Positions 36,604 through 55,876 are shown, counted from the first letter of the stretch. The stretch is DNA of 64,000 nucleotides from Eubacteriales bacterium (GCA_045604705.1 JAZUOO010000066.1:1271-65270); one strand, 5' to 3'. The notes: generated by a model from the letters alone, not told the origin. Numbers and translations are program-made.

Positions 36604-36628
36604 AACCACCACAAATAAGGAGACCGTC

Positions 36629-37645
36629 ATGAAAGTATACAACGTAACCGACTGTGCAAAAGAGCTTATAACAAAAGAGAGAATAATAATCCTCATACAC
36701 TCAAACCCCGATGGTGACTGCGTAGGCTCAGGACTTGCCCTTGCGGAAATACTTATGTCTCTCGGAAAAACCGTGAGAGTAGTCTGCCCCCACACCTTAC
36801 CTGACAGACTTGATTTCGTTGCCGCAGAGCTCCCCGAACAGATTCTGTGCTTCGGACGCCCTGTTGAGGATGATTTCGGTGCAGACCTTATCATGAGCAC
36901 TGATGTAGCATCTCCCGAGCTTCTCGGCAGAATAAGAGAGCTTTACGAGGGCAGGATAAATCTCTGCATAGATCACCACATGATAAACACAATGAACACC
37001 GATTACATCTGGCGTGACGCGACCTGCTCTGCCTGTGGTGAGATGATACTCGAACTGTGTGATGAACTTTCAAGCCTATCCCAAAAGCCGCTTCTTACAA
37101 CCTCTGTCGCCAACAGAATCTACGCGGCAATATCCTCCGACTCCGGCTCATTCAAATATGGCAATACCACTGCAAAGACACTGCTTTACGCATCAAGACT
37201 GAAGTCTGTCGGTGCCGATTCCGAGGTAATATCAAGACTACTGTTTGATACCAAGAGCCTTGCTCAATACAAGCTTACGGGACTCTGTATTCCAAAAACC
37301 GAATTTCTCTGTGACGGCAAACTCACATTTTGTCTTTTGCTTGACGAAGAACTTGCCCTTTGCGGTGCTACAAAAGAGGACTGCGACGGCATAACTCAGA
37401 TTTTCCGCGAAGTAAAAGGCGTGGAGCTTAGTATATTTGCAAAACAGCACCTCGACTCCGTAACCGGAGAAAACTGCGTCAAGATGTCCCTGCGTTCCAA
37501 TATCCTGGCAAACTGTGCTAAAATCTGCGAAGCCTTCGGCGGCGGTGGGCATATCAAAGCGGCAGGTTGTACAATCAGAGGTGAGAGCTGTGAGAGGGCG
37601 AGGGAAATGATAATTGCGAGAGCTATGGAGGAAATTAGCATTTAG
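36629..37645 (+). CDS. nrnA: DHH/DHHA1 phosphoesterase (NrnA-type oligoribonuclease/pAp phosphatase)
   Basis: From ATG 36629 (AAGGAG RBS): IILIHSNPDGDCVGSGLAL, DHH (IDHH), SDSGSFKY, GGGGHIKAAG. Confidence 0.85.
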   Translation: MKVYNVTDCAKELITKERIIILIHSNPDGDCVGSGLALAEILMSLGKTVRVVCPHTLPDRLDFVAAELPEQILCFGRPVEDDFGADLIMSTDVASPELLGRIRELYEGRINLCIDHHMINTMNTDYIWRDATCSACGEMILELCDELSSLSQKPLLTTSVANRIYAAISSDSGSFKYGNTTAKTLLYASRLKSVGADSEVISRLLFDTKSLAQYKLTGLCIPKTEFLCDGKLTFCLLLDEELALCGATKEDCDGITQIFREVKGVELSIFAKQHLDSVTGENCVKMSLRSNILANCAKICEAFGGGGHIKAAGCTIRGESCERAREMIIARAMEEISI

Positions 37646-37750
37646 GTAATAAGGAATGGGGATTTCATTATTGCATAATAAAGTTCGCCTGTGAACTTAA
37701 TAATGCGTAATTGATGTTGATTTTTCAAAATCTTCATTAATGATATAATG

Positions 37751-37790
37751 CAGGGTGTACCGTTATCGGCGCACCCTGTTGTTGTATTTG
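37751..37790 (+). terminator. Intrinsic terminator after nrnA
   Basis: CAGGGTG (37751-37757) pairs with CACCCTG (37772-37778), plus an inner CCG/CGG pair, then TTGTTGTATTTG. Confidence 0.6.
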
Positions 37791-38133
37791 TGCTATTTTA
37801 ACCGTTTTTTGGAAAGCTTTTTAACAATTTTAAAAGCGTTTTGTTTCTGTATAACACAAAAAAGGCAGGTGAAAATTCACGTTGTTTAGTCGGCACGATG
37901 CAAAATACATACCCCAAAACCTCAGAAAGGCAATACCAACCATCAAAAAAATTGGGCATCTCTAAAAACTCAGCATTAATTGTTTGACAGTGGACAAGGG
38001 GCAGTGAATGAGGATTTTTGCGTTCAAAGAAAATCAAATTTGATACAAATACCCGCAAAAATCTCCATTTGATTATAAAATTATATCTTTTAAGATTTCA
38101 ATAATTTGAAGGAAACGAAGCTTCCAACATCAA

Positions 38134-38189
38134 TTTTGCATTTTGCATTTTCCATTATGCATTATGCGTTATACATTGTGCATTATTAA
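38134..38189. repeat. Degenerate heptamer tandem array, 8 units of TTATGCA type
   Basis: TTTTGCA TTTTGCA TTTTCCA TTATGCA TTATGCG TTATACA TTGTGCA TTATTAA, read directly. Confidence 0.8.
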
Positions 38190-38194
38190 TCTGC

Positions 38195-38270
38195 TGTCCA
38201 CTTTTTTCAAAAAATAAGTTTTTACAAGTTACCAATTGATAAACTCCTGCCACTCCCTAAGCAATTACAA
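38195..38270. repeat. Left boundary repeat (TGTCCACTTTTTT ... ACCAATTGATAAACT)
   Basis: Aligns in direct orientation with 50260-50333 at about three-quarters identity by hand over ~50 nt, weaker beyond that. Confidence 0.65.
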
Positions 38271-38377
38271 ACCATCCTCCCAAAAAGTCAATTCGCATTA
38301 CAACCAAATTTTGGAAACAGATGTTCTTTAATGATTGTTGCAAAATCACAAATCGGAACATAAGTTCTAATTTTCTC

Positions 38378-38406
38378 TTGACAAATCAAAACTTTTGTGG
38401 TATAAT
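38378..38406 (+). promoter_or_regulatory. Consensus sigma-A promoter facing the phage-like module
   Basis: TTGACA (38378-38383), 17-nt spacer ending TGTGG, TATAAT (38401-38406). Confidence 0.6.
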
Positions 38407-38438
38407 TCACCCAACAAGAACACAAGTTCGATAAACCG

Positions 38439-38468
38439 TGTCGATTCTTGATAGAACCGACATTTTTT
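38439..38468 (+). terminator. Leader hairpin plus T-run (possible attenuator)
   Basis: TGTCG (38439-38443) pairs with CGACA (38458-38462), with an inner TTC/GAA pair, followed by TTTTTT (38463-38468). It lies ~150 nt before the first gene. Confidence 0.4.
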
Positions 38469-38615
38469 AAAACCTGCAAAAGAACAAAAGTTCCAAACAG
38501 ATATTCCGAAATTGAAATAAAAACAGTAAAAACGTAGTTTATAATCAGAAAAATTTACGTTTTTTGGAATCTATATTGCGAACAACAGCCGAAAAGAACG
38601 AAAGTGAGGGATTAT

Positions 38616-38879
38616 ATGACCAAAAACAAGCTCGAAATAACCGAAGAAGAACTCCTGTCGGATGACGGTATCTTCGCGGCAAAATACAATACCATGTATG
38701 ACAACGCCGAAAAGTGCTGTTATTGCGGGTGCGCTATTATGCCCGGAGAAAAGGCTCTGCAGCTGTATGCCAACGGCGATGTGCTCCACAGACAATGCTG
38801 GCAGGAATATGCCGATGAATATACCGAATCCTTCGGCAAAGAGTTCGTCTGCGATGACGGCACTATGTCGGATTTTTAA
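38616..38879 (+). CDS. Small Cys-rich hypothetical protein (first gene of module)
   Basis: ATG 38616 after GAGGG. 87 aa with a CCYCGC ... HRQC pattern (possible zinc binding). Confidence 0.6.
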   Translation: MTKNKLEITEEELLSDDGIFAAKYNTMYDNAEKCCYCGCAIMPGEKALQLYANGDVLHRQCWQEYADEYTESFGKEFVCDDGTMSDF

Positions 38880-38899
38880 TATGAAAGGAGGATGACTGT

Positions 38900-39286
38900 T
38901 TGATAAAAAGAAGAAAAACCCTTGAACATTACCAAAGACTGGCAAAGAAATATTTCAACGACTGCGACAAAGCAAACGCCGTGTGCGGGGAAAAAGCTCC
39001 GCTTGCAAAGCCTTACACTCTTTCCGGACTTCTGTGTGCACTGGAGCTTGACAGGGAAAACTTCAGAAGTCTTGATAAAACAAGAAAAGGCAGAATGTTC
39101 GTCAACTATGTGCTTATGAAGATAGAAGCCTTTATTGAGGAAAATGCACTTTCGGGCAGAATATCTGCTTCCGCCGCGTCAAATTCTCTGAAGTACAGCT
39201 TTGGCTGGAGCGATAAAGAAAAAACAAGTGAGGACAGAAGCATCACCGTAAGTCTTTCCGAGGATGCAAGACGTCTTGGCGAATAG
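38900..39286 (+). CDS. terS: Putative terminase small subunit / DNA-packaging protein
   Basis: TTG start 9 nt after AAAGGAGG. 128 aa. KPYTLSGLLCALELDRENF resembles the gp3-type packaging protein HTH. Sits directly upstream of terL. Confidence 0.65.
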   Translation: MIKRRKTLEHYQRLAKKYFNDCDKANAVCGEKAPLAKPYTLSGLLCALELDRENFRSLDKTRKGRMFVNYVLMKIEAFIEENALSGRISASAASNSLKYSFGWSDKEKTSEDRSITVSLSEDARRLGE

Positions 39287-39319
39287 AGCTTTGGCAGATA
39301 CTGTTCGGGAGGTGAGATT

Positions 39320-40648
39320 TTGAATAATATCAACGCCGTTCTTCAAGGGTACCCGCAGGAGAAGCAGTGTTTGTTTTTTGAAAGCCGTACAAAGTATACG
39401 GCATACGGCGGTGCGAGAGGCGGTGGAAAAAGCTGGGCACTGCGGCGAAAGTTGGTTCTCATGTGCCTATGCTACGACGGACTGTCGGTACTGCTTCTGA
39501 GAAGGACATACCCGGAGCTTCGGGAAAATCATATCCGTCCGCTTCTTTCCGAGCTTCGTGATATTGCGGAATACACCGACTCAAGGAAAAGCTTCGAGTT
39601 TCCCAACGGTTCCCGAATAAAGCTCGGTTACTGCGACTGTGAGGATGATGTCAATCAGTATCAGGGGCAGGAATATGACATCATAGGTCTTGACGAGGCA
39701 ACTCATTTTTCCGAGTATCAGTTTCAGACCCTCAAAGCCTGCCTTCGCGGAACCAACGACTTTCCGAAGCGTATGTATCTGACCTGCAATCCGGGCGGTA
39801 TCGGTCATGGCTGGGTAAAGCGACTGTTTATTGACGGAAATTTCCGCAAGGGCGAGAATGCACAGGATTATCGTTTTATTCCCGCATCCGTCTATGACAA
39901 CGGAATACTGCTTGAAAAGGATCCGGATTATCTCGCACAGCTTGAAAGCTTGCCGTCCGACCTTCGGCGTGCGTGGCTTTACGGTGACTGGGATGTGTTC
40001 GCAGGTCAGTTCTTCCCGGAATTCAGCAGTGAAATTCATGTGGTACAGCCTTTTGAAATTCCCGACTTCTGGAAAAGGTACTGTGCCATTGACTACGGTC
40101 TTGATATGCTTGCCGCGGAATTCATTGCCATGTCACCGAACGGTGAGGCTTATGTTTACGATGAGGTGCATATTCCGGGGCTTATCGTGAGCGAGGCGGC
40201 AAGAAAAATACGCGAAAAGGCAAAAGGAGTGGGAGTGATAATTGCCCCCTCGGATTTGTGGTCAAGGCAGAAGGACAGTGGGAAGAGTATAGCCGAGCTT
40301 TTTGCGGATAACGGTGTATATCTTACAAGGATAGTAACAGAAAGAACGGAGGGCTGGTTGTGCCTGAAGGAATGGCTCTGCCCCTATGTTTCGGAGGATG
40401 GCACGAAAAGGGCGAAGCTTATGATCTTCAACATATGCCGTGATATAATTCGCTGTCTGCCGTTGCTTCTTTGCGACAAAGACAAACCCGGCGACGCATC
40501 CACCAAGCCTCATTCCATCACACACGCTCCGGATGCTCTCAGATACTTTGCGGTGTCACGTCCTATCAGTTCCGGGGAAAGGACAGCACCGTCACATATA
40601 AAGCTTTCTAAGAGTCTTCGGAACGGGAAGGTGAAAAGGTTGATGTAA
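39320..40648 (+). CDS. terL: Terminase large subunit
   Basis: TTG start after GGGAGGTGA, with no in-frame ATG before Walker A. Walker A YGGARGGGKSWA, Walker B YDIIGLDEATH, nuclease-domain AIDYG and HAPDALRY. Confidence 0.9.
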   Translation: MNNINAVLQGYPQEKQCLFFESRTKYTAYGGARGGGKSWALRRKLVLMCLCYDGLSVLLLRRTYPELRENHIRPLLSELRDIAEYTDSRKSFEFPNGSRIKLGYCDCEDDVNQYQGQEYDIIGLDEATHFSEYQFQTLKACLRGTNDFPKRMYLTCNPGGIGHGWVKRLFIDGNFRKGENAQDYRFIPASVYDNGILLEKDPDYLAQLESLPSDLRRAWLYGDWDVFAGQFFPEFSSEIHVVQPFEIPDFWKRYCAIDYGLDMLAAEFIAMSPNGEAYVYDEVHIPGLIVSEAARKIREKAKGVGVIIAPSDLWSRQKDSGKSIAELFADNGVYLTRIVTERTEGWLCLKEWLCPYVSEDGTKRAKLMIFNICRDIIRCLPLLLCDKDKPGDASTKPHSITHAPDALRYFAVSRPISSGERTAPSHIKLSKSLRNGKVKRLM

Positions 40649-40775
40649 ATAAGCGACAGGACGTTTTATGACGGATGCTGAGAGTGGGATAAAGAAAAGA
40701 TAAAAGCTTAATACCAGATGACGACTGCTATTGTTTATTACGGCTATTTAAGTCGGGGAAAGGAAAAACAAAATT

Positions 40776-42599
40776 ATGAAAAAATCATTCGGCAATTTAT
40801 TTTCTAAAAACAGACGTACAGTACATAATGTTTACAATTACTCGGATACATACTCCCGTGAAGATACTATTGCATCGCTTCTTTCAAAGGCTGCAGAGGC
40901 AAGACGAGGGATGAATGAGTATTGGAAGAAGATGAAGCTTTATTATGACGGCATTCATCCGACTTCCGGTTTTGCGGACGCTTTCGGAGTGGAGAATGAC
41001 CTACCGTTCAGATGTGCCCAGAGCAGTGACGGATATATTCATGTTGAAAGCCAGATAGACGCAGTACTTCCCGAATTTGAATTCTCGCCCAGGGGTAAGG
41101 AGGATGTCGAAAAGGCAAAACAGCGCGAAAAGCTTGTTCGTTACATATGCGACAGAAACGACATGGAGTATAAGAATTCAAGAAACGAAAGACGGCTGGG
41201 TATTCTCGGCTCTGCCGTTTGGAAGGTCTGTTGGGATAGTACAAAATATGAGGACGGCAATGTCGGTGATATACTTATAGATAATCCCCACCCCAATGAG
41301 ATATATCCCGATCCGAGTGCGAAGTGCGTTGATGACTGCGAGTATATCGGTTATGTTTATTCCATGCACCGCGAAAAGGCGAGGAGAGTTTTTGCAAAGG
41401 AGCTTGCCGCCAAAGGTATTGACTTTGATGAGCTCATATCCGCATTTGACAGAAAGGCGGGAAGATATGACGATGAGGTTGACGGGATATTATCTGCGGA
41501 CAGGGACAGTGACACTGTTAAGATCACCGAATGGTGGTTCAGACACCCCTGTGACGGTGAGGCTGATTTTGAATATTTTGAAGACGGAGAGAAAAAGAAA
41601 ATAAGGTGCAAATATAAATCCGGTGATATAGCTCTGTGCGTGCTTATCGGTGATACGGAGGTAAGATACATTCCGAAATACTGGAACGACACCGGTTGCA
41701 CCATGTTCCCCTTTGTTATCTATGACAGACTTCCCGACGAGAATACTCTTTGGGGAAAGAGCGAGCTTGAAGCGATAATTCCCTTTATTGATGCTGCGGA
41801 CAGAGAAATAGCCTATGCCCAGATGAATTCGGCATTTTCTTCAAACGATATAATAGTTGCGGAGGAGAACGCCCTTTGTGATGACTGCGAGCTTGATAAT
41901 TCACCCGGGGCACTCTGGAAGCTGCGTCCGGGAATGATGGGCAAGGTGCAGAGACTTGGCAACAACGCTTATTCTGAGAGCTATCTTCACGCAAATTACG
42001 ACAAGTGGAGAGTCCTTATGCAGGAAACTACGGGAAACTTCGCCATAAACCAGGGCAATGAGCCGGAAAAGGTTACGACAGCGACCGGTATAGCACTGCT
42101 TAATGAGAGGGCGAAAAACAGGACAACTCTGAAAAAGATAGACAAAAGTGCGGGATTCAGGAGACTTTACGAGCTCTGCGACAGGACTGCCCTTGAATAT
42201 TATGATGACGGAAGAACGATATTCTGCGGTGCAGCGGATGAGGATGACATGGTCTACAGAGCTTCTGACTATAGAACTTCCGAGGGAGAAAACACATACA
42301 TCCCATGTGTTGACATAAGAATCCACATCGGTGACGGACTTGCCCATTCAAAGGCATTCACCGTTTCTGCCGTAAATTCCCTGATTTCGACTCCCATTAC
42401 AGCGGAGAACTACAGAATCGTTAAGAGCTACCTTGAGCTTATAGAGCTTCCCATGAGACAGGAGATCTGCGATATGCTTGATGAGAGATTTGAGGGGGTA
42501 TCGGGAGGTGCTTTGATGTATCTTTCGGAGCTTATGAACGGTGACAAAGGGAACGAAACACCAAAAGGCAATACCGCAAAAACGGCGGATAAAATGTGA
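40776..42599 (+). CDS. Portal protein (putative)
   Basis: 607 aa, immediately after terL and before the scaffold. Size and position are typical of a portal. No motif-level confirmation is possible by eye. Confidence 0.7.
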   Translation: MKKSFGNLFSKNRRTVHNVYNYSDTYSREDTIASLLSKAAEARRGMNEYWKKMKLYYDGIHPTSGFADAFGVENDLPFRCAQSSDGYIHVESQIDAVLPEFEFSPRGKEDVEKAKQREKLVRYICDRNDMEYKNSRNERRLGILGSAVWKVCWDSTKYEDGNVGDILIDNPHPNEIYPDPSAKCVDDCEYIGYVYSMHREKARRVFAKELAAKGIDFDELISAFDRKAGRYDDEVDGILSADRDSDTVKITEWWFRHPCDGEADFEYFEDGEKKKIRCKYKSGDIALCVLIGDTEVRYIPKYWNDTGCTMFPFVIYDRLPDENTLWGKSELEAIIPFIDAADREIAYAQMNSAFSSNDIIVAEENALCDDCELDNSPGALWKLRPGMMGKVQRLGNNAYSESYLHANYDKWRVLMQETTGNFAINQGNEPEKVTTATGIALLNERAKNRTTLKKIDKSAGFRRLYELCDRTALEYYDDGRTIFCGAADEDDMVYRASDYRTSEGENTYIPCVDIRIHIGDGLAHSKAFTVSAVNSLISTPITAENYRIVKSYLELIELPMRQEICDMLDERFEGVSGGALMYLSELMNGDKGNETPKGNTAKTADKM

Positions 42600-42615
42600 A
42601 TGGGGAGAAGGATAA

Positions 42616-43350
42616 ATGGAAAAAAGCAGAAAAAAATATTTTACACAGCGCGAGCTTGAAAAGCACATAAATGCACGACTTAAGCGCGAGAGAAAGAAAA
42701 ACTCCGAGCTTGAGGTTTTCAAAAATATGACGGATGAGCTTGTGCGCGCGGGAATAATTGACGCAAACTCCTATGCGGAGGCGGCAGAAAGGCTAATGAA
42801 AATTATTGCCGAAAGAACCGCCGAAAATAAGGAGGACGAAACGGGGGAAACTACAGTAAATGAAGATGTCGTAACGGCAGAGTATCCCGCCGAAGATAAC
42901 GCCGAGGGTGATAAAAGCGAACAGGCTTACCAAGAAACCACTAACGGCGCAGATGACCTCTCCGGATTTCGCTTTGAAGCTGCAGGTGAAGAGGAACCGG
43001 AGATGGGGGTTTCGGGAGATGATCCCGTGACCGTACTTGAAACGGAGGAAAGTACCCAAAAAGGCGGTTCGGATACCTCAAGACTTGCCGAGCTGTGTCG
43101 CGAGCTTCTCGGTATCATTGAGGATACATCCGAATCGGATACGGCACATGAGACCGGATTCTTTGCAAGACGTGACGCTTGCTCTACGGGCTTTTCAAAA
43201 AGAAGTGCATTGGGCACGTCAGATGTATGTGAAGAACTTACTTTGCAGCAGAGAGAAATAGCGAGGCGTGCGGGATTATCCTATCGGGAGTATGCCAAGC
43301 TTCTTCATGAAATTCCCGAAAACAGAAGAAAAAGAAAACAGCTAAGGTGA
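42616..43350 (+). CDS. Capsid scaffolding protein (DUF4355/GP20-like)
   Basis: FTQRELEKHINARLKRERKK N-terminal motif, acidic low-complexity centre, basic C-terminus. Position between portal and capsid. Confidence 0.7.
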   Translation: MEKSRKKYFTQRELEKHINARLKRERKKNSELEVFKNMTDELVRAGIIDANSYAEAAERLMKIIAERTAENKEDETGETTVNEDVVTAEYPAEDNAEGDKSEQAYQETTNGADDLSGFRFEAAGEEEPEMGVSGDDPVTVLETEESTQKGGSDTSRLAELCRELLGIIEDTSESDTAHETGFFARRDACSTGFSKRSALGTSDVCEELTLQQREIARRAGLSYREYAKLLHEIPENRRKRKQLR

Positions 43351-43391
43351 TGACCTTAAATCTTTAGTTCTTAAAAGAAAGGAAAAACGAT

Positions 43392-44051
43392 ATGACACAT
43401 TTTAATTATATCTGCGGACTTTGCGGATGTAACAAACCTTATTGTGCAAAAATTAAGCTTTCAGAAAATGTTGATGTTGCCAAGGGCGAGCTGCTTTATT
43501 ATGATACGGAGACATTTACTGTAACCCCCAAAAAGGGAACTCTTACGACAATTGCGGGGGTGTGCGCAGAAACCTACAAGGCAGAGAAGAGTGATCTTGT
43601 TCCAACCTACGGTTGTGGCTATGTTTCGGTTATTCTGTCGGAGGATGCTCTTTATTCCGTAGAACCATATATTTTTACCACCACAGAAACAGACCCCGCT
43701 GTTGTACACATACATACGAACCTTCCCGCATCCAGTACAAAGGACCCCACGGGATTTATCGGTGCAAAGATCGTACTTATTGAAAAGGCAGAAAACTCCG
43801 CACATACAGGTTCTCTTGGAAGTGAATATGTGATAAAGGAAATGGGGTACGATAATGGTTTTATTACATTCGCTACAGACTATGACGGTGCTGTGACTAA
43901 AGGTGACAAGTACGTTCTTGTTCCACCCTATGACTTCAAACGTTTTATACTTGATGAAAAAAAGAACCTCAGTGTTAATATTGAAGGAACCGGTGATTTT
44001 ACAGTGGTTGCAGCGAATGCTTCTGGATATACTCTCATGCTCAAGTCTTGA
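43392..44051 (+). CDS. Hypothetical virion protein (possible head decoration protein)
   Basis: 219 aa, good RBS (AAAGGAAAAA), between scaffold and capsid. Two beta-rich halves with G-x-V patterns. Assignment is weak. Confidence 0.5.
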   Translation: MTHFNYICGLCGCNKPYCAKIKLSENVDVAKGELLYYDTETFTVTPKKGTLTTIAGVCAETYKAEKSDLVPTYGCGYVSVILSEDALYSVEPYIFTTTETDPAVVHIHTNLPASSTKDPTGFIGAKIVLIEKAENSAHTGSLGSEYVIKEMGYDNGFITFATDYDGAVTKGDKYVLVPPYDFKRFILDEKKNLSVNIEGTGDFTVVAANASGYTLMLKS

Positions 44052-44089
44052 TAAAAGAGTAAAAATGATTTTTGAAAGGAACTGATAAT

Positions 44090-45010
44090 ATGAACGATAT
44101 TTACACATGGCCCAATGACCTTTACCCACTTGTGAAAACAAGATTCGATTTAAGATATGCCAAAAGACTTGATGTCATTTCTGAAATTTGCGATGTTATT
44201 GAGCAGGACGAGATAGACTACAGACTTGAGGGTGTTGGCGGCTACGGCGAGCTTCCGGAATACAATGGCTCAAACATTATGAGCGCGGATCAAAAGAGAA
44301 GCTTTATTACCACTATAACTCCCCGTGAACACGCCCTTGCAGTGAGTCTTTCCTACAAGAAAGCAAAGGTAGACCTCTCCGGTGAGGCGGCGAAAATCGG
44401 AACAAGACTTGCTGACTCCGCATATATGACGGTACTAAACGAATTCTATCGTCTTTTCGGTGATGCTTACACAAGGATCGGTGCGGACGGGTGTACATGG
44501 GCAAGTGACAAGCATCCCGTTAATACTCTTCCGGGCTGTGATACATACTCAAACCTTATCCACGACAGTCTTAATGTTAATTCCATTATCAAGGCTCAGA
44601 CATTGGCTTCCCGTTTTGTTACGCCCGACGGACTTCCCTTTGCAGGTAACTTTGATCTTCTTCTTGTAAGTCCCGAGCTTGAGGCTAAGGCTAAGGAAAT
44701 TTGCGGTCCCAATTCCAAGCTTATGCCGGAAAAGAACCCGGATGCTGATGCTCCCGTGAATGCGGCAAATCCCGTTTACGGTATGAAGTACCTTGTTGTG
44801 GGTGCAGGAGGAATGGGCTTCTCCGGAAAACAGTGGGCAATTGCAGATTCCATGCTTCTTCGTGAGGTACTCAAGCTCGTGTATATTTCAAAGCCTACCG
44901 TACTTGTTGCAAACCAGGATAATCCTCTTATCACCGATTATATCGGATATGTTGACTTCGGTTTTGGTTTTGCGGATGGTCGTCCCATTATCTTCTCAAA
45001 TCCCGCCTGA
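44090..45010 (+). CDS. Major capsid protein candidate (HK97-fold expected)
   Basis: ATG 44090 after GAAAGGAA. 306 aa. Position after the scaffold, with a Gly/Tyr-rich pattern (LEGVGGYGELPEY) common in capsid families. Confidence 0.65.
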   Translation: MNDIYTWPNDLYPLVKTRFDLRYAKRLDVISEICDVIEQDEIDYRLEGVGGYGELPEYNGSNIMSADQKRSFITTITPREHALAVSLSYKKAKVDLSGEAAKIGTRLADSAYMTVLNEFYRLFGDAYTRIGADGCTWASDKHPVNTLPGCDTYSNLIHDSLNVNSIIKAQTLASRFVTPDGLPFAGNFDLLLVSPELEAKAKEICGPNSKLMPEKNPDADAPVNAANPVYGMKYLVVGAGGMGFSGKQWAIADSMLLREVLKLVYISKPTVLVANQDNPLITDYIGYVDFGFGFADGRPIIFSNPA

Positions 45011-45027
45011 GTTTGTGAGGTGACGGT

Positions 45028-45270
45028 ATGGAATTTTTGAAAGTTGTAAAAAATGAATCTATAAGAGTTTCCTCAAATATACACATCACACAGGAATATG
45101 ATAGCCACGGTTATAAGGCAAGATTCAAGGTTACGAACGGTACGGTAAATATTTACTGCGGAAGGACTGGGTTGTATCCTCTTGTAGAGGGAGAAGTCTT
45201 TGAGTTCGTCGGAAAGATAACATTTTTCGGTACTGGTGAGATACAGTGTATCCTTTTTGACAGAATTTAA
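45028..45270 (+). CDS. Small hypothetical protein
   Basis: 80 aa, RBS GAGGTGA, 17 nt after the capsid stop. Confidence 0.55.
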   Translation: MEFLKVVKNESIRVSSNIHITQEYDSHGYKARFKVTNGTVNIYCGRTGLYPLVEGEVFEFVGKITFFGTGEIQCILFDRI

Positions 45271-45410
45271 TGTACTTTTCTACTGAAAAGTCAAAGAATA
45301 AATAATAAATTATCCGCAAAAGGTGCGGGCGACGGGATCGGTATTACATGATGGTCATTTCCCGCACCGATGTTTCTTGTGATTTTGTGGATGAAAGTAA
45401 GGAGGTAAAA

Positions 45411-46385
45411 ATGTATTCCAAAGCTTATACCCTTGGTGAGTTCCGTGGCAGGATACTAAAGCTTCTTCAGCGTTACAGCTCAAACGGTACGATTGTCCAA
45501 AGCGGAGAAAAGGCGGATATTGAAAACCGTCTTGTTACAAGTCTCAACATACATCTCACAAGACTTATGTATGAGTTTTCAGACAATATCAAAAGACGTG
45601 CAGTTTCATTTTTTATGCCCGGATGTGCGGCTGATTTCGGTAGTATGAGCCTGTGTGCGGGCGAGAACGTTGAAAAAAACGTCAAAGGACAGGGGCTTGC
45701 CTTTTACATGGAAGCAAGAGGCGAGGGAACTGTTGAAATATCCCTTGACGGCAGAACTCTAACACGGAGAATCTACACCGATAACGGAGCATATACAGTT
45801 GTCAGAGGCATACTTGGAAACGACATGGAGTGCGAGTGTACTTTCAGAATATCCTGCGATACATATCTTGATATTAAGAATTTTACTGTATATGAGGGAA
45901 CACTGGATGCAAGGGGAGACGGGGAGCTTATATGTGCCAAAAGCCGTTCCTCTGCATATATTCCCGATGACTGTGCCGAAATACTTGCTGTATATGAGAG
46001 GAATGGAGCAAAGGATATAAATACGAATTTCAGTGTTCTTGAAGAAGAACGAATCGTTTTTGTACCCAGATGTGCGAATGACGAGTATATTATTGAGTAC
46101 GTGCCTTATGCACCGCAGTTTTCGGAAAGTGAGGGGGACAGCTCGCAGGTTTGTATATCGCCTCTTACGGCGGATGCACTCTGTTATATGTGTGCGGCGG
46201 ATCTGTGTCCCGTGAACCAGCCGGAGCTGTACTCAAAGCTTACATATAAATACAGGGAAATACTTGAAAATACCTATACAAGACACAGGAAGAACGGTAT
46301 GATAAACAGGTTCTACGGTTTTGTGAGAAAAAGAGGTATAGGTTCTGTCAAGAGTTCGCGACGTGAGGTGTACAATGTCACATAA
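45411..46385 (+). CDS. Hypothetical virion-associated protein (324 aa)
   Basis: ATG 45411 after AAGGAGG. Overlaps the next gene by 11 nt. Confidence 0.6.
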   Translation: MYSKAYTLGEFRGRILKLLQRYSSNGTIVQSGEKADIENRLVTSLNIHLTRLMYEFSDNIKRRAVSFFMPGCAADFGSMSLCAGENVEKNVKGQGLAFYMEARGEGTVEISLDGRTLTRRIYTDNGAYTVVRGILGNDMECECTFRISCDTYLDIKNFTVYEGTLDARGDGELICAKSRSSAYIPDDCAEILAVYERNGAKDINTNFSVLEEERIVFVPRCANDEYIIEYVPYAPQFSESEGDSSQVCISPLTADALCYMCAADLCPVNQPELYSKLTYKYREILENTYTRHRKNGMINRFYGFVRKRGIGSVKSSRREVYNVT

Positions 46386-48204
46386 GGATATTGGTATGCC
46401 GGAGAGCTTTAAAAGCAAAAGTCTGTTTCTCGATTGCGGGAGATTTGACAAGGGCGTTGTTTTCTGTGAGTACGACAGAGAGCTTTCCGAGGGACAAAGT
46501 CCTCTTATACAGAACATGATATATGATAAAAATATGCTCAGGACGAGGTTTGGACAGGAGAGCGTGAGTACGGCTGCTTCTCCAAAAGGGGAACTGCATT
46601 CTGCAAGCAGTGAGTTCTTTTTCGGAAATTATGTGTTTCATATAGGAACAGGGCTATATACCTTTGACGGAGAAAACTTGCGGGCCATTTACGATGAAGT
46701 TCCTGATTGTAAAAGCTTTATGTTTGTCATGAATTCCATGCTGTACGTTTTTTTTGAGGACATAAGAATATTTGTGGTGGATAAAGACTTCACGGTTTCG
46801 GAGAATGTCATTGCGGATACGAAGATAGGTCGTAATGCAAAGTATAATCTTTCCTCTTATACGGAACTTGAGGTTCCGGACAACATGATGCTTTTCAGGG
46901 TAAACGTGGATTACGTTGAGGTCAATGCGGGGACAAAACAGTATAATCTTCCAACCGAGTGCGACAGTAAGTATCCCGTTATTTTTACATCAATCCAGAA
47001 CGGTACAGTATCGCCTGTTAACTATACCGTTGATGGAAGCGTGGTCACACTTGACAGAGCACTGTACATACCTTACAATATAAGCTATGTTCCGGCGAAA
47101 GGTACCAAGTACAGAACCATTGACAAGATATTTGGTTGTACTGCGGTCTGTACCTACGGTGGAAACAGCTCGGGAGGAACAAGAGTGTTCTTTACCGGAA
47201 ACCCTGAATACCCGGGGTATTATTTCTACAGTGAACTTCTGTCTCCGCTTCACATAAAAAATCTATCCTATGATATTCTCGGTGACGGAAGGGAGGATAT
47301 TGTCTGTCTGGCAAAACAGAAAGGGGATCTTGTTGCTTTCGGGACAGCCTCTGTTTATAAACTGACATACTCCTTTGATGAGTATACGGGTCCAAACTTC
47401 ATTGTCTCGGAGATCAGTACCGGTGTAGGCTGTGACATTCCCGGAAGTGTAAAGCTTATTGACAACAGGCTGGTATTTGCAAATTCCCGTACGGGTGTAT
47501 ACATTATCACGGCATCGGAGTATACGGATGAGCTAAGCATTAGGAGAATCTCCGCCAATATCAACGGGAACTCGGGAAACGGGTTTCTGAATGAGGATGC
47601 TTCGACGCTCAAGAACTGTATTTCAGTGGATTTTGCAAGGCGGTATATGCTTGTTTGTCAAAACGGAAATGCGTATGTGTGGGATTACGGAAACTCGCCA
47701 TATGTCGTGGGGGACAACCCGCTTTCGTCGGAAAAGAGGCTTTCGTGGTACTTTTTTGACAGTATTTTTGTAAATACACTCTTTGAAATATCCGGGAAGC
47801 TTTTCGGAACGCGGAGTCTGGGAGACTCTGTGGACATTGTTCATTTTTCCGATGACTGCGATACGGATTTCGGGGCGAACATATTGTGTATGTACGGAAG
47901 CCGCAGCTTTGATGTGGGAGAGAGTTTTTCAAAAAAGACCGCCTCGGAGATGTATATTAATGCGGCAGGAAAACCCGGTACAAGTCTTATGATTTATCTT
48001 TTTGCCGACAATGTTCCGATACTGTTTGAAAATTATGTTTTTGACGGACGTGACGAGGACGGTGAATTTTTAAGACGCTTACTTTACAGAATACCCGAAT
48101 ATGAGGCGTACAGGTTTTCCTTTATGCTCATATGTACCGGGGGACAAACGGGACTTTACGATGCCGCTATGAGATTCAGTGCGGGCGGAATTTATTACAG
48201 ATAA
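46375..48204 (+). CDS. Hypothetical large virion-associated protein (609 aa)
   Basis: ATG 46375 overlaps the upstream stop. Beta-rich and aromatic/Gly-rich. No family recognised. Confidence 0.6.
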   Translation: MSHKDIGMPESFKSKSLFLDCGRFDKGVVFCEYDRELSEGQSPLIQNMIYDKNMLRTRFGQESVSTAASPKGELHSASSEFFFGNYVFHIGTGLYTFDGENLRAIYDEVPDCKSFMFVMNSMLYVFFEDIRIFVVDKDFTVSENVIADTKIGRNAKYNLSSYTELEVPDNMMLFRVNVDYVEVNAGTKQYNLPTECDSKYPVIFTSIQNGTVSPVNYTVDGSVVTLDRALYIPYNISYVPAKGTKYRTIDKIFGCTAVCTYGGNSSGGTRVFFTGNPEYPGYYFYSELLSPLHIKNLSYDILGDGREDIVCLAKQKGDLVAFGTASVYKLTYSFDEYTGPNFIVSEISTGVGCDIPGSVKLIDNRLVFANSRTGVYIITASEYTDELSIRRISANINGNSGNGFLNEDASTLKNCISVDFARRYMLVCQNGNAYVWDYGNSPYVVGDNPLSSEKRLSWYFFDSIFVNTLFEISGKLFGTRSLGDSVDIVHFSDDCDTDFGANILCMYGSRSFDVGESFSKKTASEMYINAAGKPGTSLMIYLFADNVPILFENYVFDGRDEDGEFLRRLLYRIPEYEAYRFSFMLICTGGQTGLYDAAMRFSAGGIYYR

Positions 48205-48221
48205 CGGAAAGGAAAATAAAT

Positions 48222-49307
48222 ATGTCATCTAAATGGAAATATGCAGATCTTGATGCGTCTCACAGGCTGGAGCTTTTGAAAAAAGGTAACAAGGAGCTGT
48301 TTGAAGAAGAGGTAGCAAGAACAAAAGAGGTAACCGAGGCAAGACGTGAGCTCGGACTTGACACATCGGCACAGGAAAATTGGATGGACACCGTAGGGTA
48401 CAATTACAACCTTTCATTGGCAGGTGACGGGGACAAGGTAAGCGAGACGGGCTATGCACAGCTTTATCTTGACGGCAAAAAACAGGATACACAGCCGTCG
48501 CCGGTGAAGATGCGCAAAGAAGGTATATCCACGGGGACATCGTACATTTCTAATGCAAACAAAAAGATAGAACAGGCACAGGAGCTTGCGAAAGAGAGCC
48601 TGAAAGACAGATACGAAATAAAAAAGCGGGAGATCCGCGATGAGCTGTATGAAAAATATCCTTATCTCAAGGAGCAGATAGTGAATGAGGGTGCGTCGCC
48701 TATGGGCGGGAAACTGCAGAGAGCTTACGATTCCATTGAAAAGGAGCTTGCGGATATTTATTCCGGGCTTGAACAGGAGCTTACACAGGAGCTTGCGGCA
48801 CTTGATAAGAAATATTCGGGTATCAAGAGTAAAGTCATGGAATACAGAAGAAACGGGACAGCACTTGAATCCCTCGGTGTCATTGCGGATGTACTTATAA
48901 GAAATGCCGCGGCTGAAGACGGATTTGATTCTTCCGTTATTCCCGGGATGGGCGGTAATATAACGGTAAGAAATATTCGTGACAAGGCGGGGGATAAGTC
49001 TGAAGCAACAAATACGGCAAAGGTTCCGAATTATAAAAAGGAATCGGGCATTGATGATGAATATGACGAATCTGAAGGCTCCGACGGCGGAATAAGTGTA
49101 AAGGAAGAGGTCGGCTCCGGGGATCCGCTAAAGTATGTGGCGGACTATCTTAAAAAGGCGGTTTCGGATCAATCGGGGGGAACTGCAAATGTGATACGTA
49201 CCTTGGGTGAAATGCTTGTAAGGAACGGAATGAATCCCCAATCGGCGGTACTGACGGCGGCAGAACTTGTGATGCTTATTGTTAAAAATGCTGCACAAGG
49301 GACATAA
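48222..49307 (+). CDS. Hypothetical coiled-coil-rich protein (361 aa)
   Basis: ATG 48222 after AAAGGAAAA. Glu/Lys/Leu heptad-like stretches. Last gene of the module. Confidence 0.6.
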   Translation: MSSKWKYADLDASHRLELLKKGNKELFEEEVARTKEVTEARRELGLDTSAQENWMDTVGYNYNLSLAGDGDKVSETGYAQLYLDGKKQDTQPSPVKMRKEGISTGTSYISNANKKIEQAQELAKESLKDRYEIKKREIRDELYEKYPYLKEQIVNEGASPMGGKLQRAYDSIEKELADIYSGLEQELTQELAALDKKYSGIKSKVMEYRRNGTALESLGVIADVLIRNAAAEDGFDSSVIPGMGGNITVRNIRDKAGDKSEATNTAKVPNYKKESGIDDEYDESEGSDGGISVKEEVGSGDPLKYVADYLKKAVSDQSGGTANVIRTLGEMLVRNGMNPQSAVLTAAELVMLIVKNAAQGT

Positions 49308-49673: not shown

Positions 49674-49702
49674 TTGACAAACTCTGCAAGATGTGGTATA
49701 AC
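49674..49702 (+). promoter_or_regulatory. Consensus-like sigma-A promoter for the small-peptide unit
   Basis: TTGACA (49674-49679), 17-nt spacer ending TGTGG, TATAAC (49697-49702). Confidence 0.55.
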
Positions 49703-49746
49703 ATTATTGTAAATTAAAAATAAACAAAATTTTAAGGAGGCGCGAG

Positions 49747-49860
49747 ATGTTGAAAAATAAAAAGGCTGTGATTTTTTCCTTTGTTTTTTCGGTACTTGTT
49801 ACTCTTGCGCTTTTTTATGCTGACAGCGTAATGGCAGTGTCGTGGGGACAGTTTTTTTAA
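49747..49860 (+). CDS. 37-aa hydrophobic peptide (signal-peptide-like precursor or small membrane peptide)
   Basis: AAGGAGG 6 nt before ATG. MLKNKKAVIFSFVFSVLVTLALFYADSVMAVSWGQFF, then TAA. Flanked by its own promoter and terminator. Below the ORF-track size cutoff. Confidence 0.45.
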   Translation: MLKNKKAVIFSFVFSVLVTLALFYADSVMAVSWGQFF

Positions 49861-49890
49861 GTCCACGGTGCTGCGGAAATAAAATAGATT

Positions 49891-49919
49891 GGGCTCCTTG
49901 GAAACGGGGAGTCTTTTTT
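49891..49919 (+). terminator. Intrinsic terminator of the small-peptide unit
   Basis: GGGCTCCTTG-GAAA-CGGGGAGTCT: a 10-bp stem (four G-U pairs) with a GNRA loop, then TTTTTG. Confidence 0.5.
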
Positions 49920-49940
49920 GATGCTGAGTGAATTTGAATG

Positions 49941-50272
49941 AAAAGTGGATAGTGAAGAGGATTGTGCCCCTCTGAGGATAGTTTAAATTAAAGCATTGCA
50001 ATTCCTGCAGACACACCCTCAGTCCGGAGAAAACATAGCTTTCTTTTAGAGAATTCTCTGAATTTTTCAATCTACGGTGACAGCTCCCTCGGAGAGGGTG
50101 CCTTGGGTAAGTGTACCAATGGTGTTTTGGTGTTGATTGGAATTGTGACATTCCTGCGAGGTGACGGGACAGAGCAAGGGTGTCTCTGCCTTGCGGCGAA
50201 CATTGATATATTATCCGCAAATACAATTAGGTATCTCAAGAAACTCAAAGTGATTTGAGTGTCCACTTTTTT
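49941..50272 (+). ncRNA. Candidate structured RNA or MITE-like element bounded by 11-nt inverted repeats
   Basis: AAAAGTGGATA (49941-49951) pairs with TGTCCACTTTT (50260-50270), then TT. The interior is G+C-richer by eye, with several complementary GC-rich segments. No credible ORF. Confidence 0.3.
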
Positions 50273-50333: not shown

Positions 50334-50348
50334 TTATGTATTATGCAT

Positions 50349-55871: not shown

Positions 55872-55876
55872 GAATC

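Follow-up and report, generated by a model that had tools for sequence, protein, structure and literature searches.

A conserved phage-derived packaging, head and nozzle gene cassette in Oscillospiraceae and Clostridia, apparently under LexA and likely a new GTA family known here from its genes

We analysed a 64,000-nucleotide stretch of DNA from a Eubacteriales bacterium (the window), in which eleven co-directional genes lie on the + strand at 38616-49307, with nrnA (DHH/DHHA1 domains) on one side and fba (class-II aldolase) on the other. An earlier interpretation made from the DNA alone (the sequence-only reading) had described this block and its housekeeping flanks; every ORF was recovered where it had been placed, and domain matches confirmed both neighbours. 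The genes, in their order, are:

38616..38879, + strand: g1, 87-aa Cys/His-rich small protein, possibly a zinc ribbon (weak phrog_4331 match)
38900..39286, + strand: g2, small terminase (TerS) of the P22 gp3 type, TTG start (GP3_package 9e-14 in Pfam, phrog_606 2e-6)
39320..40648, + strand: g3, large terminase TerL (phrog_979 2e-50, Terminase_6N 4e-13, Terminase_3)
40776..42599, + strand: g4, portal of the P22/SU10 type (P22_portal 3e-15, SU10_portal 5e-10, phrog_156 8e-33)
42616..43350, + strand: g5, probable scaffolding protein, acidic, N- and C-terminal ends conserved (position, phage homologues)
43392..44051, + strand: g6, 219-aa protein, possibly head accessory or decoration (orthologues in other cassettes)
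44090..45010, + strand: g7, major capsid protein, Phage_capsid_4 / Mu gpT-like (homologue families, hhalign)
45028..45270, + strand: g8, 80-aa beta-rich small protein (conserved position)
45411..46385, + strand: g9, 324-aa probable head-to-tail adaptor with inserted beta-sandwich domains (AF2, BFVD, hhalign)
46375..48204, + strand: g10, 609-aa tail nozzle / hub of beta-propeller type (AF2 and Foldseek)
48222..49307, + strand: g11, 361-aa Glu/Lys/Ala-rich protein, N-terminal ~100 aa conserved (no family match)

The gene starts proposed earlier match those of orthologues, the capsid gene excepted, and the motifs quoted for TerL (GGARGGGKS and DIIGLDE) and for g5 (FTQRELEKHINARLKRERKK) are present. 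The impression of no obvious compositional break agrees with the computed values, the GC being 0.451 in the cassette and 0.432 in the remaining window, with a cassette GC3 inside the host-gene range. A candidate flanking direct repeat proved to be a dispersed intergenic repeat with a further copy at 55.9 kb. Pfam and PHROGs searches of the 11 products, and NCBIfam searches of g1-g10, returned zero matches to integrase, replication, lysis or repressor families; as had been claimed, no such gene was found between nrnA and fba. Fibre, receptor-binding, holin and endolysin genes are absent from the cassette and from the rest of the 64-kb window.

The identities of TerS, TerL and the portal were supported by Pfam and PHROGs matches. 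The g2 start has AAGGAGG 8 nt upstream, and in g3, which is 75-81% identical to its counterparts in the related loci L001-L004, the ATPase and nuclease regions were both matched (phrog_2 over residues 12-413, phrog_5653 over 222-420). The HMM matches of g7 itself were weak (Mu gpT 0.022, phrog_371 0.0067); homologues at 91% identity bear Pfam PF25209 (Phage_capsid_4), which is also the precomputed Pfam match of its homologue clusters where one is recorded. Moreover, g7 aligns end to end (hhalign, 276 columns) with the capsid protein of a prophage in L017, which matches Mu-like_gpT and NCBIfam capsid-fusion models. The earlier capsid candidate keeps its identity but not its start: the ORF is open from TTG 44072, but ATG 44090 is most likely the start, judging from the AAAGGA ribosome-binding site upstream of it and homologues of 303-306 aa.

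For g5, hmmscan gave zero matches, leaving its description as DUF4355-like unsupported. Its position between portal and capsid is filled by ~233-277-aa proteins in the related phages L014-L017, and over its C-terminal region it shares 32% identity with the L015 protein; position and same-position phage homologues make a scaffold the probable assignment. Orthologues of g1 occupy the first position in the window, L001-L004, L007, L008 and L011 (pN 0.10 vs pS 0.58). Those of g6 occur in L001, L002, L006, L007, L011 and L012, plus phage L015 (27% identity); missing from L004, g6 is dispensable in that one lineage. Every cassette, and phage L015 too, has a protein of 80-90 aa at the g8 position; the 80-aa ORF of L015 at this place has a Phage_head_fibr Pfam match on record.

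The sequence-only reading had reported no recognisable tail genes and had left the 609-aa protein unassigned, and both statements fail at the structure level. The AlphaFold2 model of g10 (pLDDT 89.6, pTM 0.87) was searched with Foldseek, and each of its best 30 PDB matches is a nozzle, hub or muzzle chain from the tail of a podovirus or a crAss-like phage. They include cyanophage A4 (1.8e-19), SU10, P22 gp10 (8u10 and 8eap, 2e-17, TMt 0.65-0.68), Sf6 gp8 and T7 gp12, the E values for these last three proteins spanning 1e-19 to 1e-11. The predicted fold identifies g10 as a podovirus tail nozzle. The g9 model (pLDDT 82.7) has helices at its termini, a pair of beta-sandwich domains and a C-terminal tail that is disordered. 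In BFVD its best match (7.6e-16) was to an uncharacterised protein from a phage, with "head to tail adaptor" entries at ranks 15 and 40, and hhalign aligned it across 265 columns (E 1.6e-4) with the 322-aa protein that phage L015 encodes at this position; neither SU10_adaptor nor any PDB adaptor was matched. These matches point, weakly, to g9 being a head-to-tail adaptor. Pfam and PHROGs searches matched no family in g11, which in distant cassettes is conserved in its N-terminal 70-115 aa while its length runs from 173 to 445 aa; it is possibly an internal or ejection protein, or a plug. The suggestion that 45411-49307 encodes adaptor, nozzle and ejection proteins holds for the nozzle at 46375-48204, with g9 and g11 as candidates for the other two.

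Upstream of g1 lies a compact regulatory region, all on the + strand:

38283..38297, + strand: upstream box AAAAGTCAATTCGCA, ~85 bp upstream of the -35, invariant among relatives
38356..38367, + strand: LexA box 1 GAACATAAGTTC, exact GAAC-N4-GTTC, 10 bp upstream of the -35
38378..38406, + strand: sigma-70-type promoter, TTGACA, 17-nt spacer, TGgTATAAT (extended -10), consensus 12/12 plus TG
38418..38429, + strand: LexA box 2 GAACACAAGTTC, 11 bp downstream of the -10, covering the region where transcription starts
38438..38469, + strand: leader hairpin then six-U run, terminator- or attenuator-like (-10.8 kcal/mol, z -3.7)
38482..38493, + strand: LexA box 3 GAACAAAAGTTC, in the transcribed leader

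The host-consensus promoter noted earlier is present with all 12 consensus positions and the TG extension; four species share identical -35 and -10 hexamers, and the same layout recurs in eight loci. For Bacillus and Clostridia the LexA operator has been published as GAAC-N4-GTTC (PMC4234289). This motif has three matches in the whole window, all within 138 bp around the cassette promoter. The position of box 1 is conserved in L001-L003 and L007-L010, and each of the eight loci with upstream DNA has a cluster of three or four boxes at the corresponding place. An exact-pattern scan of metagenomes for box-promoter-box returned 25 loci, at least 17 of them ahead of a yneA-like gene (TM plus LysM); in five of these the divergent neighbour is lexA, confirmed by Pfam in one (Peptidase_S24 1.8e-33, LexA_DNA_bind 1.2e-21) and read from the sequence in the other four. 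In the phage-like contigs L014-L016, scanned for LexA boxes, none was found. The window itself has no lexA, recA or uvr gene. The cassette is apparently under the host SOS repressor LexA, which would bind these putative operators. In L001, L002, L003 and L007 the interval from box 2 to box 3 contains an equivalent hairpin and U-run built on another stem sequence (z ~-3); the one in L008 is weak. The AAAAGTCAATTCGCA box occurs once per locus, unchanged in the window, L001, L002 and L003 despite diverged adjacent bases, and is absent from L007-L010; it could be a regulator site.

Two other species (L001 and L002) carry all 11 genes intact, in unchanged order and at the same nrnA-fba site. Host and cassette genes rank alike in divergence, L001 being nearer to the window than L002 (identities of 82 vs 76% for nrnA, 79 vs 71% for the portal and 63 vs 55% for g10). 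For every cassette gene pN is far below pS, and dN/dS, approximate because dS is saturated in most comparisons, is ~0.05 for the capsid, ~0.055 for the portal, 0.10 for TerL and the nozzle and 0.06-0.07 for nrnA. The saturated dS also excludes that the orthologues are recent horizontal copies that have had no time to decay. Homologues of the capsid protein form 726 clusters, whose contigs reach 685 kb in length; the best 120 of the 726 are at least 73% identical. The comparison of relatives that the sequence-only reading had proposed found the block present, syntenic and intact, with low dN/dS for terL, portal and capsid.

These data bear on whether the block is what remains of the structural genes of a short-tailed prophage, now decaying and without function. 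Such a remnant would fit a partial phage genome for which complete phages with a homologous module exist; on the other hand, the ORFs are intact in the loci examined, selection on every gene is at the level of the neighbouring housekeeping genes, the promoter and operator architecture is conserved, and the capsid family is as broad and as similar as described. Distant homologues do occur in complete phages, but relaxed selection and inactivating mutations were not found. The remnant reading is already contradicted, and we leave it only a very slim chance; the earlier proposal of this kind was right about the anatomy, namely the nozzle and a short-tailed phage descent, and wrong about the status, the genes being kept by selection.

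That descent is indicated by the phage-like contigs L014-L016 and the L017 prophage, which carry a colinear module with 35-41% identity in the portal, 42-45% in the capsid and 25-27% in the nozzle, and which add replication genes. Like P22/Sf6/SU10-like podophages, L014-L016 have homologous, colinear gp3-type TerS, TerL, P22/SU10-type portal, scaffold, capsid and nozzle. Unlike the cassette, these contigs (to ~40 kb) hold replication and nucleotide-metabolism genes, with a 2432-aa LPD38 protein in L014 and fibre/RBP genes in L016, and have no LexA-box promoter; no lysis gene was seen in the parts of them examined. The cassette descends from short-tailed, scaffold-dependent, protease-less phages, and differs from podophages and from L014-L016 in ending one gene past the nozzle.

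Carriers of the capsid cassette include many Oscillospiraceae and Clostridia MAGs, where host genes surround it. In L003, L004 and L007-L010 these are unrelated host genes, again with no integrase or replication gene, and because chromosomal context differs between lineages, occasional horizontal movement is possible. Across lineages the cassette GC follows that of the host flanks, from 42 to 55%. The capsid protein had zero matches in 50,697 phage records, and only two short fragments were found in IMG/VR.

The differing neighbourhoods, the two IMG/VR fragments, the lack of fibre and lysis genes and a XerC-like integrase 1 kb downstream in L008 are what a capsid-forming satellite or mobile element would offer, one spreading horizontally among Oscillospiraceae and relying on a helper phage for fibres, lysis and perhaps also excision and replication. 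However, no cassette has an integrase, primase/replication gene, alpA or repressor, and the L008 integrase is missing from L009 and L010, whose capsid protein is identical. The shared nrnA-fba site and co-divergence with the host in three species, and the GC that follows the host, also speak against it, as does control by host LexA operators instead of helper-triggered derepression. The cf-PICI satellites are likewise small, with their own terminase, portal and capsid and less than a full virion, but they have integrase, alpA and primase/replication genes, excise, replicate, self-package and take whole helper tails; the cassette has none of these features and encodes its own nozzle. With no integrase, replication or excision gene, no att repeats and a locus fixed in three species, the satellite proposed earlier found no support, and we regard it as quite improbable.

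We consider it probable that the locus is a domesticated, chromosomally fixed P22/SU10-like structural and packaging module, kept by the host as a GTA-like particle cassette under direct LexA control; it is likely a new GTA family and not a dead prophage. Of the domesticated GTA-like or capsid-only particle suggested by the sequence-only reading, the first half is favoured by synteny, selection, host embedding, LexA boxes and absence from phage records, and "capsid-only" is wrong because a nozzle is encoded. The sequences show what TerS, TerL, portal, capsid and nozzle are, that the genes are conserved under purifying selection, that the LexA-box architecture is conserved and that the module descends from phages. 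We infer LexA binding, particle formation, random packaging of host DNA and DNA transfer, together with the roles given to g1, g5, g6, g8, g9 and g11. In an undamaged cell, LexA would sit on three operators bracketing the consensus promoter, with the leader hairpin and U-run as a possible additional brake on read-through. Upon DNA damage, active RecA would trigger LexA self-cleavage and the g1-g11 operon would be transcribed. Portal, scaffold and capsid protein would assemble into procapsids, a protease being unnecessary as in P22; the gp3-type TerS with TerL would fill them with cellular DNA by the headful; and the probable adaptor g9 and the nozzle g10 would close the portal, with g11 as an internal or plug protein. 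The particle may be incomplete without other loci, because the window holds no fibre, RBP, holin or endolysin gene and no further LexA box; fibres or receptor-binding proteins, and lysis functions, would have to come from other loci, such as the second operon that FpGTA has, unless the particle can do without them.

Among alphaproteobacterial GTAs, those of the RcGTA type are also domesticated, vertically inherited, host-regulated head and packaging clusters lacking replication and integration genes, with accessory functions possibly at other loci. RcGTA has no sequence relationship to the cassette, is siphovirus-like, with protease, tape measure and tail, and is regulated through CtrA, GafA and quorum sensing, with only an indirect effect of LexA. 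PBSX of Bacillus subtilis is an SOS-inducible, defective phage-like Firmicute element, as the cassette would be, and the cassette would likewise package host DNA. PBSX, at ~28 kb, acts as a killing particle; it is built like a myovirus, contractile tail included, and encodes both a repressor of its own (Xre) and lysis functions.

Among known systems FpGTA of Faecalibacterium comes closest, being alike in gene order and different in capsid family. Its operon I was described in Faecalibacterium prausnitzii (Borodovich et al., Nat Commun 2026, PMC12946183), where 40-nm particles package 8.4-8.9 kb of random host DNA; the same work saw GTA-like packaging in Oscillospiraceae, the gene cluster not being found. 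Compared by published gene order and annotations, both are chromosomal, ~10 kb, podovirus-type, hosted by Oscillospirales gut anaerobes (Faecalibacterium for FpGTA, Oscillospiraceae/Clostridia MAGs for the cassette) and free of replication, integration and regulator genes. Both run TerS, TerL, portal, scaffold-region gene(s), capsid, small ORF, adaptor-position gene, nozzle and a Glu/Lys/Ala-rich last gene, the nozzles share the PDB match 8eap, and g11 holds the position of the abundant "TolA-like" particle protein RCH50844. Their capsids differ: that of FpGTA is named as N4-gp56 family, whereas g7 and its relatives do not match that NCBIfam model (N4 gp56 itself, as positive control, gave 6e-102), and hhalign of g7 with N4 gp56 gave a probability of 0.1. 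The FpGTA adaptor matched PDB 7sp4, whereas g9 matched no adaptor in the PDB; FpGTA has a "Prp"-annotated gene between portal and capsid where the cassette has two unannotated ones; and the Cys-rich first gene is extra in the cassette. The FpGTA paper makes no mention of LexA (PMC12946183).

Its authors leave open whether their particles deliver DNA (PMC12946183), which lends some weight to a phage-derived particle, induced by SOS, that is maintained for something else than transfer, such as PBSX-like packaging without delivery, killing, disposal of damaged DNA or sacrifice of damaged cells. The domestication and LexA-control evidence serves this account as well as the GTA-like one, and the cassette has no receptor-binding or fibre gene. 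Yet a killing device is unlikely to consist of a short nozzle with no contractile tail, the extreme capsid conservation is left unexplained, and TerS, TerL and portal are intact under strong purifying selection, which argues that selection acts on DNA packaging itself. Taken jointly, these non-transfer purposes seem to us unlikely, though the most serious competitor of the GTA-like cassette.

Downstream of g11 lies a small accessory unit with its own promoter, RBS, small ORF and terminator:

49674..49920, + strand: accessory unit as a whole
49674-49702, + strand: promoter TTGACA, 17 nt, TGgTATAAC
49747-49860, + strand: ORF for a 37-aa single-pass membrane peptide
49891-49914 plus T-run, + strand: terminator

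Because the unit is absent from L007-L010, its membership of the cassette is lineage-specific. Promoter, RBS and peptide are kept in L001, L002 and L004, the last of which lies in a different chromosomal context.

We recovered the eleven co-directional, tightly spaced open reading frames (g1 to g11) between nrnA and fba at window 38616-49307, just where the sequence-only reading had placed them. Our analysis indicates that these genes probably form a particle cassette of podovirus origin, domesticated and under SOS control, which would be of the gene transfer agent (GTA) kind and of a family distinct from the GTA of Faecalibacterium prausnitzii (FpGTA), the closest published system. HMM searches supported four of the products, the capsid (g7) through weak matches only and the other three as follows:

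38900-39286, plus strand: g2, P22-gp3-type small terminase (TerS; GP3_package, 9e-14)
39320-40648, plus strand: g3, large terminase (TerL; phrog_979, 2e-50; ATPase and nuclease parts both matched)
40776-42599, plus strand: g4, P22/SU10-type portal (HMM, 3e-15 and 5e-10; phrog_156, 8e-33)

The remaining seven products matched no Pfam or PHROGs family with an assigned function, and NCBIfam returned nothing for six of them (g11 not being among the six). The reading frame first proposed for the capsid gene stood and its start did not, the most likely one being the ATG at 44090; the scaffold-like g5 had been called DUF4355-like, a label for which hmmscan gave no support. The cassette is flanked by genes for a HAD hydrolase and nrnA (DHH/DHHA1) on one side and by fba (class-II aldolase) and comEC on the other, within a window that is origin-proximal core chromosome throughout (ftsK, mfd, mnmE, rsmG, parB) and in which our scans detected no tRNA genes or Rfam families. 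Congruently with the absence of a visible compositional break, the GC content was 0.451 in the cassette and 0.432 in the rest of the window, with GC3 inside the host range.

Sequence-profile searches of the PDB with the g10, g9 and capsid alignments returned nothing, and the nozzle identity of g10 emerged from its predicted structure alone. The AlphaFold2 model of this 609-aa protein (35 homologues; pLDDT 89.6, pTM 0.87) was matched by Foldseek to podovirus or crAss-like tail nozzle, hub or muzzle chains in all of its best 30 PDB hits, including cyanophage A4 (1.8e-19), P22 gp10 (8u10 and 8eap; 2e-17, TMt 0.65-0.68), Pa223, Sf6 gp8, SU10 and T7 gp12. These matches identify g10 as the tail nozzle. 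The model of g9 (pLDDT 82.7) has helices at both termini, a pair of beta-sandwich domains and, at the C-terminal end, a disordered tail. Its Foldseek hits in the PDB were CBM/jelly-roll domains only; in BFVD the best was an uncharacterised phage protein (7.6e-16), while entries named "head to tail adaptor" ranked 15th and 40th, and hhalign aligned it over 265 columns (E 1.6e-4) to the 322-aa protein occupying the same position in the phage-like contig L015. Judged by position and architecture only, g9 is a probable adaptor. We rejected an adaptor of the SU10 or P22 type, given that hhalign found no match to SU10_adaptor and the PDB gave jelly-roll/CBM domains only. Loci like this cassette escape annotation pipelines, the capsid, the nozzle and six other products having no informative family matches in the Pfam, PHROGs or NCBIfam libraries searched.

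To trace the ancestry of the module we searched 1.84 billion representatives with the portal (phmmer), which yielded 375 matches; at E <= 1e-30 these came to 62 portal clusters (clustered at 50% identity). An exact look-up of the window portal in an index of assemblies gave no record. Portals that are longer and more distant (35-41% identity) sit in phage-like contigs. Three such contigs and one prophage hold a distant homologous module:

L014: 40.6-kb contig with a DNA methyltransferase, a PAPS reductase and a 2432-aa LPD38-domain protein (20710-22223 onward, three genes 3' of the nozzle gene)
L015: HNH, SSB, ThyX and a gp3-type TerS
L016: primase, RNase T and a gp3-type TerS; BppL_N and Mtd_N/GDSL fibre proteins after the nozzle
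L017: prophage within a 971-kb contig, with an SU10_adaptor gene

All four carry replication genes, and fibre/RBP or depolymerase genes in part. Their structural modules are colinear with the cassette, at identities of 42-45% for the capsid, 25-27% for the nozzle, 31% for TerL, 26% for TerS and 27% for g6. These colinear homologous modules show that the cassette descends from short-tailed, scaffold-dependent Firmicutes phages, from which it kept TerS through nozzle plus one gene but none of the genes for replication, fibres and lysis. No LexA box was found in L014-L016 (L017 lay outside the scan).

The loss of such genes would also be expected of a decaying prophage remnant, and indeed none of the lysogeny, replication, fibre and lysis modules of a complete P22/SU10-like prophage adjoins the cassette, with housekeeping genes standing on both sides. 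Comparison of the nrnA-fba locus among relatives and estimation of dN/dS, both proposed in the sequence-only reading, bear on this. In our scan of one genome per species, gut and rumen MAGs of Oscillospiraceae and Clostridia yielded six related loci, and L001 and L002, which share the nrnA-fba site, keep all 11 genes intact and in the same order. Their ranking is identical for host and cassette genes:

Protein identity to the window at the two loci sharing the nrnA-fba site
Capsid: L001 92%, L002 91%
TerL: L001 81%, L002 78%
Portal: L001 79%, L002 71%
g10: L001 63%, L002 55%
nrnA (host): L001 82%, L002 76-77%
HAD (host): L001 72%, L002 65%
fba (host): L001 97%, L002 97%

By Nei-Gojobori counts pN was far below pS in every gene. 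For the capsid gene pN was 0.045 and pS 0.55 (dN/dS ~0.05), and dN/dS was 0.055 for the portal, ~0.10 for TerL and g10, 0.16 for g9, 0.17 for g11 and 0.06-0.07 for nrnA, these ratios being approximate with dS mostly saturated, and the direction pN < pS not being in doubt. Three species keep the cassette in synteny at nrnA-fba; together with the intact reading frames, pN far below pS and a GC content that follows the host, this indicates that it is passed down along with the host lineage and maintained by purifying selection. We would thus not regard it as a decaying remnant, a reading that now seems hardly credible. In L001 a gene for a 1018-aa surface protein is inserted between nrnA and the cassette, and the last 28 codons of fba occur in two extra copies (20423-20506 and 20594-20677) adjoining the intact gene (20773-21636, minus strand), with the terminator-like sequence behind them also repeated (region 20423-20780).

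The family extends well beyond this site. We found 726 capsid homologue clusters (E <= 1e-3; clusters at 90% identity), the best 120 of which are all at least 73% identical and 303-335 aa long, their contigs reaching 685 kb in length; most of these 120 carry a precomputed match to Pfam PF25209 (Phage_capsid_4). A tblastn search of 50,697 phage records with the capsid found nothing, IMG/VR gave just two short fragments, and the portal has a match in Bacillus phage PK1 (23% identity). In distant lineages the capsid keeps 74% identity, and the others fall, TerL to 65%, the portal to 53-57% and the nozzle to 27-31%. Across the family, as seen at L007 and L008, two related cassette loci, the orthologues of the capsid gene (44090-45010) are far more conserved than portal or TerL. 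The usual order in phages is the reverse, and the conservation of the capsid beyond portal and TerL suggests an extra constraint on it.

The cassette is a chromosomal cluster for structure and packaging, devoid of replication, integration and lysogeny control of its own, as are its counterparts at ten related loci. One could nevertheless entertain a satellite or mobile element: in L003, L004 and L007-L010 the cassette stands in unrelated chromosomal surroundings (trkAH/rplS, rubrerythrin, uvrD-type helicase, glycosidases, proS), and a XerC-like gene lies near L008. That gene is missing from L009 and L010 despite an identical capsid protein, none of these six cassettes contains an integrase or replication gene, and our search for cf-PICI/satellite hallmarks (integrase, excision, primase/rep genes, flanking att repeats) found none. 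Cassette GC tracks that of the flanks from 42 to 55%. We consider a satellite or mobile element markedly improbable.

Inside the cassettes of L008-L010, the TerL-portal and g8-g9 gaps contain palindromic, GC-rich REP/MITE-like arrays (e.g. GTTGCCGTGAAATACGAATTCCGATGGTCGGAATTCGATTTCAC), whose copy number differs between these strains with identical capsid protein:

L008, 5668-6498 and 11221-12350: REP/MITE-like arrays
L009, 5523-6496 and 11221-11990: REP/MITE-like arrays
L010, 5987-6495 and 11221-12135: REP/MITE-like arrays

These 0.5-1.1 kb gaps were considered as genes, and this was ruled out, the gaps being the repeat arrays themselves.

Next, we studied the promoter region. The host-consensus promoter reported at 38378-38406 is real, matching at 12/12 positions and carrying the TG extension. 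In an upstream alignment of four species the −35 hexamer and the extended −10 are invariant and are bracketed by GAAC-N4-GTTC palindromes, a sequence that in Bacillus and Clostridia is the operator of LexA (PMC4234289). The window contains exactly three of these, at 38356, 38418 and 38482, all within 138 bp at the promoter, when ~1 would be expected per 64 kb. Three to four boxes occupy the same place at every locus whose sequence includes the upstream DNA (exact in L001-L003 and L008-L010; one exact and two with one mismatch in L007), in the invariable order box, −35, −10, box, hairpin with U-run, box. The hairpin between boxes 2 and 3 is followed by six U (z −3.7), and four other lineages have a hairpin with a different stem sequence there; its kept position with a differing stem suggests an attenuator that would hold basal expression low.

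An independent scan for the exact box-promoter-box layout across 241 million metagenome records gave 25 matches, one of them a cassette (L020). At least 17 of the 25 drive a protein of ~105-113 aa that combines a LysM domain with a transmembrane segment, as does YneA, which inhibits cell division in the SOS response, and at five of those LysM loci the divergent neighbour is LexA, confirmed by Pfam at the metagenome contig L030 (Peptidase_S24, 1.8e-33; LexA_DNA_bind, 1.2e-21) and recognised by sequence at the other four. Since lexA/yneA-like promoters share this layout, the cassette promoter has that of a core SOS promoter. Host LexA would then act as the repressor, which would explain the missing repressor gene. 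LexA-box control of such a cluster is undescribed for FpGTA and in the literature searched. In three metagenome contigs the layout also drives a 176-aa sigma-70 region 4 protein, possibly a regulator that serves another element and is under SOS control:

L033, 4750-5397: box-promoter-box and sigma-70 region 4 protein
L039, 3840-4476: box-promoter-box and sigma-70 region 4 protein
L042, 3482-4118: box-promoter-box and sigma-70 region 4 protein

The conserved triple predicted LexA operator offers a simple trigger (mitomycin C, ciprofloxacin, inflammation). This control would equally suit an SOS-induced particle that transfers no genes, and neither the cassette nor the 64-kb window contains a fibre/RBP gene, a holin or an endolysin. 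We judge such a particle without gene transfer unlikely. The P22 gp3-type headful terminase family is compatible with packaging of random host DNA in pieces shorter than the cluster itself, and by analogy with FpGTA operon II release functions may lie elsewhere in the genome. If the GTA-kind reading is true, the LexA trigger would make DNA damage from antibiotics or oxidation in the gut a direct cause of gene flow through capsids.

FpGTA operon I (RCH50844-RCH50853; CP030777, 2536737-2546346) spans 10.5 kb and ten genes (TerL RCH50852, portal RCH50851, adaptor RCH50847, nozzle RCH50846, capsid RCH50849.1); the particles are ~40 nm, seemingly tail-less and filled with 8.4-8.9 kb of random host DNA, and a second operon elsewhere in the genome encodes fibres, RBP, holin and endolysin (PMC12946183). 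Comparing through the locus tags and annotations of its Supplementary Data 2 (PMC12946183), we observed that operon I shares the order of the cassette, namely TerS, TerL, portal, scaffold, capsid, small ORF, adaptor, nozzle and TolA-like protein. The two differ in that the FpGTA capsid is named as N4-gp56 family, whereas TIGR04387 matched neither the window capsid nor two family members (P0107, P0050) nor the L014-L017 capsids (N4 gp56 control, 6e-102), and hhalign gave the cassette capsid a probability of 0.1 against N4 gp56. Moreover, the FpGTA adaptor matched PDB 7sp4 and g9 gives no such match. Twenty portal relatives, cluster entries without informative names or accessions (four being "hypothetical protein"), provided no link to FpGTA. 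Set apart by capsid family and adaptor match, with FpGTA read by its description, the cassette family is distinct from FpGTA and not a plain orthologue. The unlike capsid families suggest repeated recruitment of podophage heads within this order.

GTA-like packaging of random host DNA has been measured in human and mouse gut Oscillospiraceae, where Faecalibacterium alone has identified gene clusters and Coprocola has a candidate (PMC12946183; bioRxiv 10.64898/2026.07.08.737213); Onthomonas and Pelethomonas show such packaging with no gene cluster found (PMC12946183; 2026 preprint). The cassette is a concrete, widespread candidate for this activity. A bolder scenario, which we hold to be a long shot as a whole, is that it represents a second independent podophage-to-GTA domestication in gut Oscillospiraceae and the missing cluster behind the reported packaging, with LexA-wired genome packaging in damaged cells, and that a complete single locus would make fibreless particles whose DNA reaches kin without a dedicated RBP, for example via the competence machinery of the recipient. 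In the window, comEC lies 2.7 kb downstream of the cassette.

Just after the cassette stands an accessory unit with its own near-consensus promoter, encoding a 37-aa single-pass membrane peptide (MLKNKKAVIFSFVFSVLVTLALFYADSVMAVSWGQFF):

49674-49920: accessory unit with promoter (TTGACA, 17 nt, TGgTATAAC), RBS, 37-aa ORF (49747-49860) and terminator

L001, L002 and L004 have kept both the promoter and the peptide. The peptide could be holin-like or type I toxin-like; an outright assignment as holin or type I toxin was dropped, with no family match and the unit absent from distant cassettes. Att-like direct repeats (TGTCCACTTTTTT...) at 38195 and 50260 were likewise discarded as attL/attR: a third copy at 55899 on the minus strand and their absence from L001 and L002 indicate a dispersed intergenic repeat of ~45 nt (TGTCCACTTTTTTAAATGA.TTTTTACAGTTCACCAATT):

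38193-38245, plus strand: dispersed repeat
50258-50310, plus strand: dispersed repeat
55865-55913, minus strand: dispersed repeat

The long non-coding stretches flanking the cassette also hold runs of ATGCATT-like heptamers (TTATGCATTA and variants; 38133-38190 and 50333-50350), which are no more frequent in the window than chance would give. Elsewhere in the window, four large ORFs have no Pfam family:

14-2203, plus strand: 729 aa
26532-29300, minus strand: 922 aa
55959-57626, plus strand: 555 aa
57799-58851, minus strand: 350 aa

The window carries origin-proximal genes (mnmE, rsmG, parB) yet no dnaA gene, and a replication origin in the 970-bp gap upstream of the cassette was rejected for want of a DnaA-box cluster. 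Near 38 kb (window ~36000-39000), where gene orientation switches, the cumulative GC skew is at its lowest.
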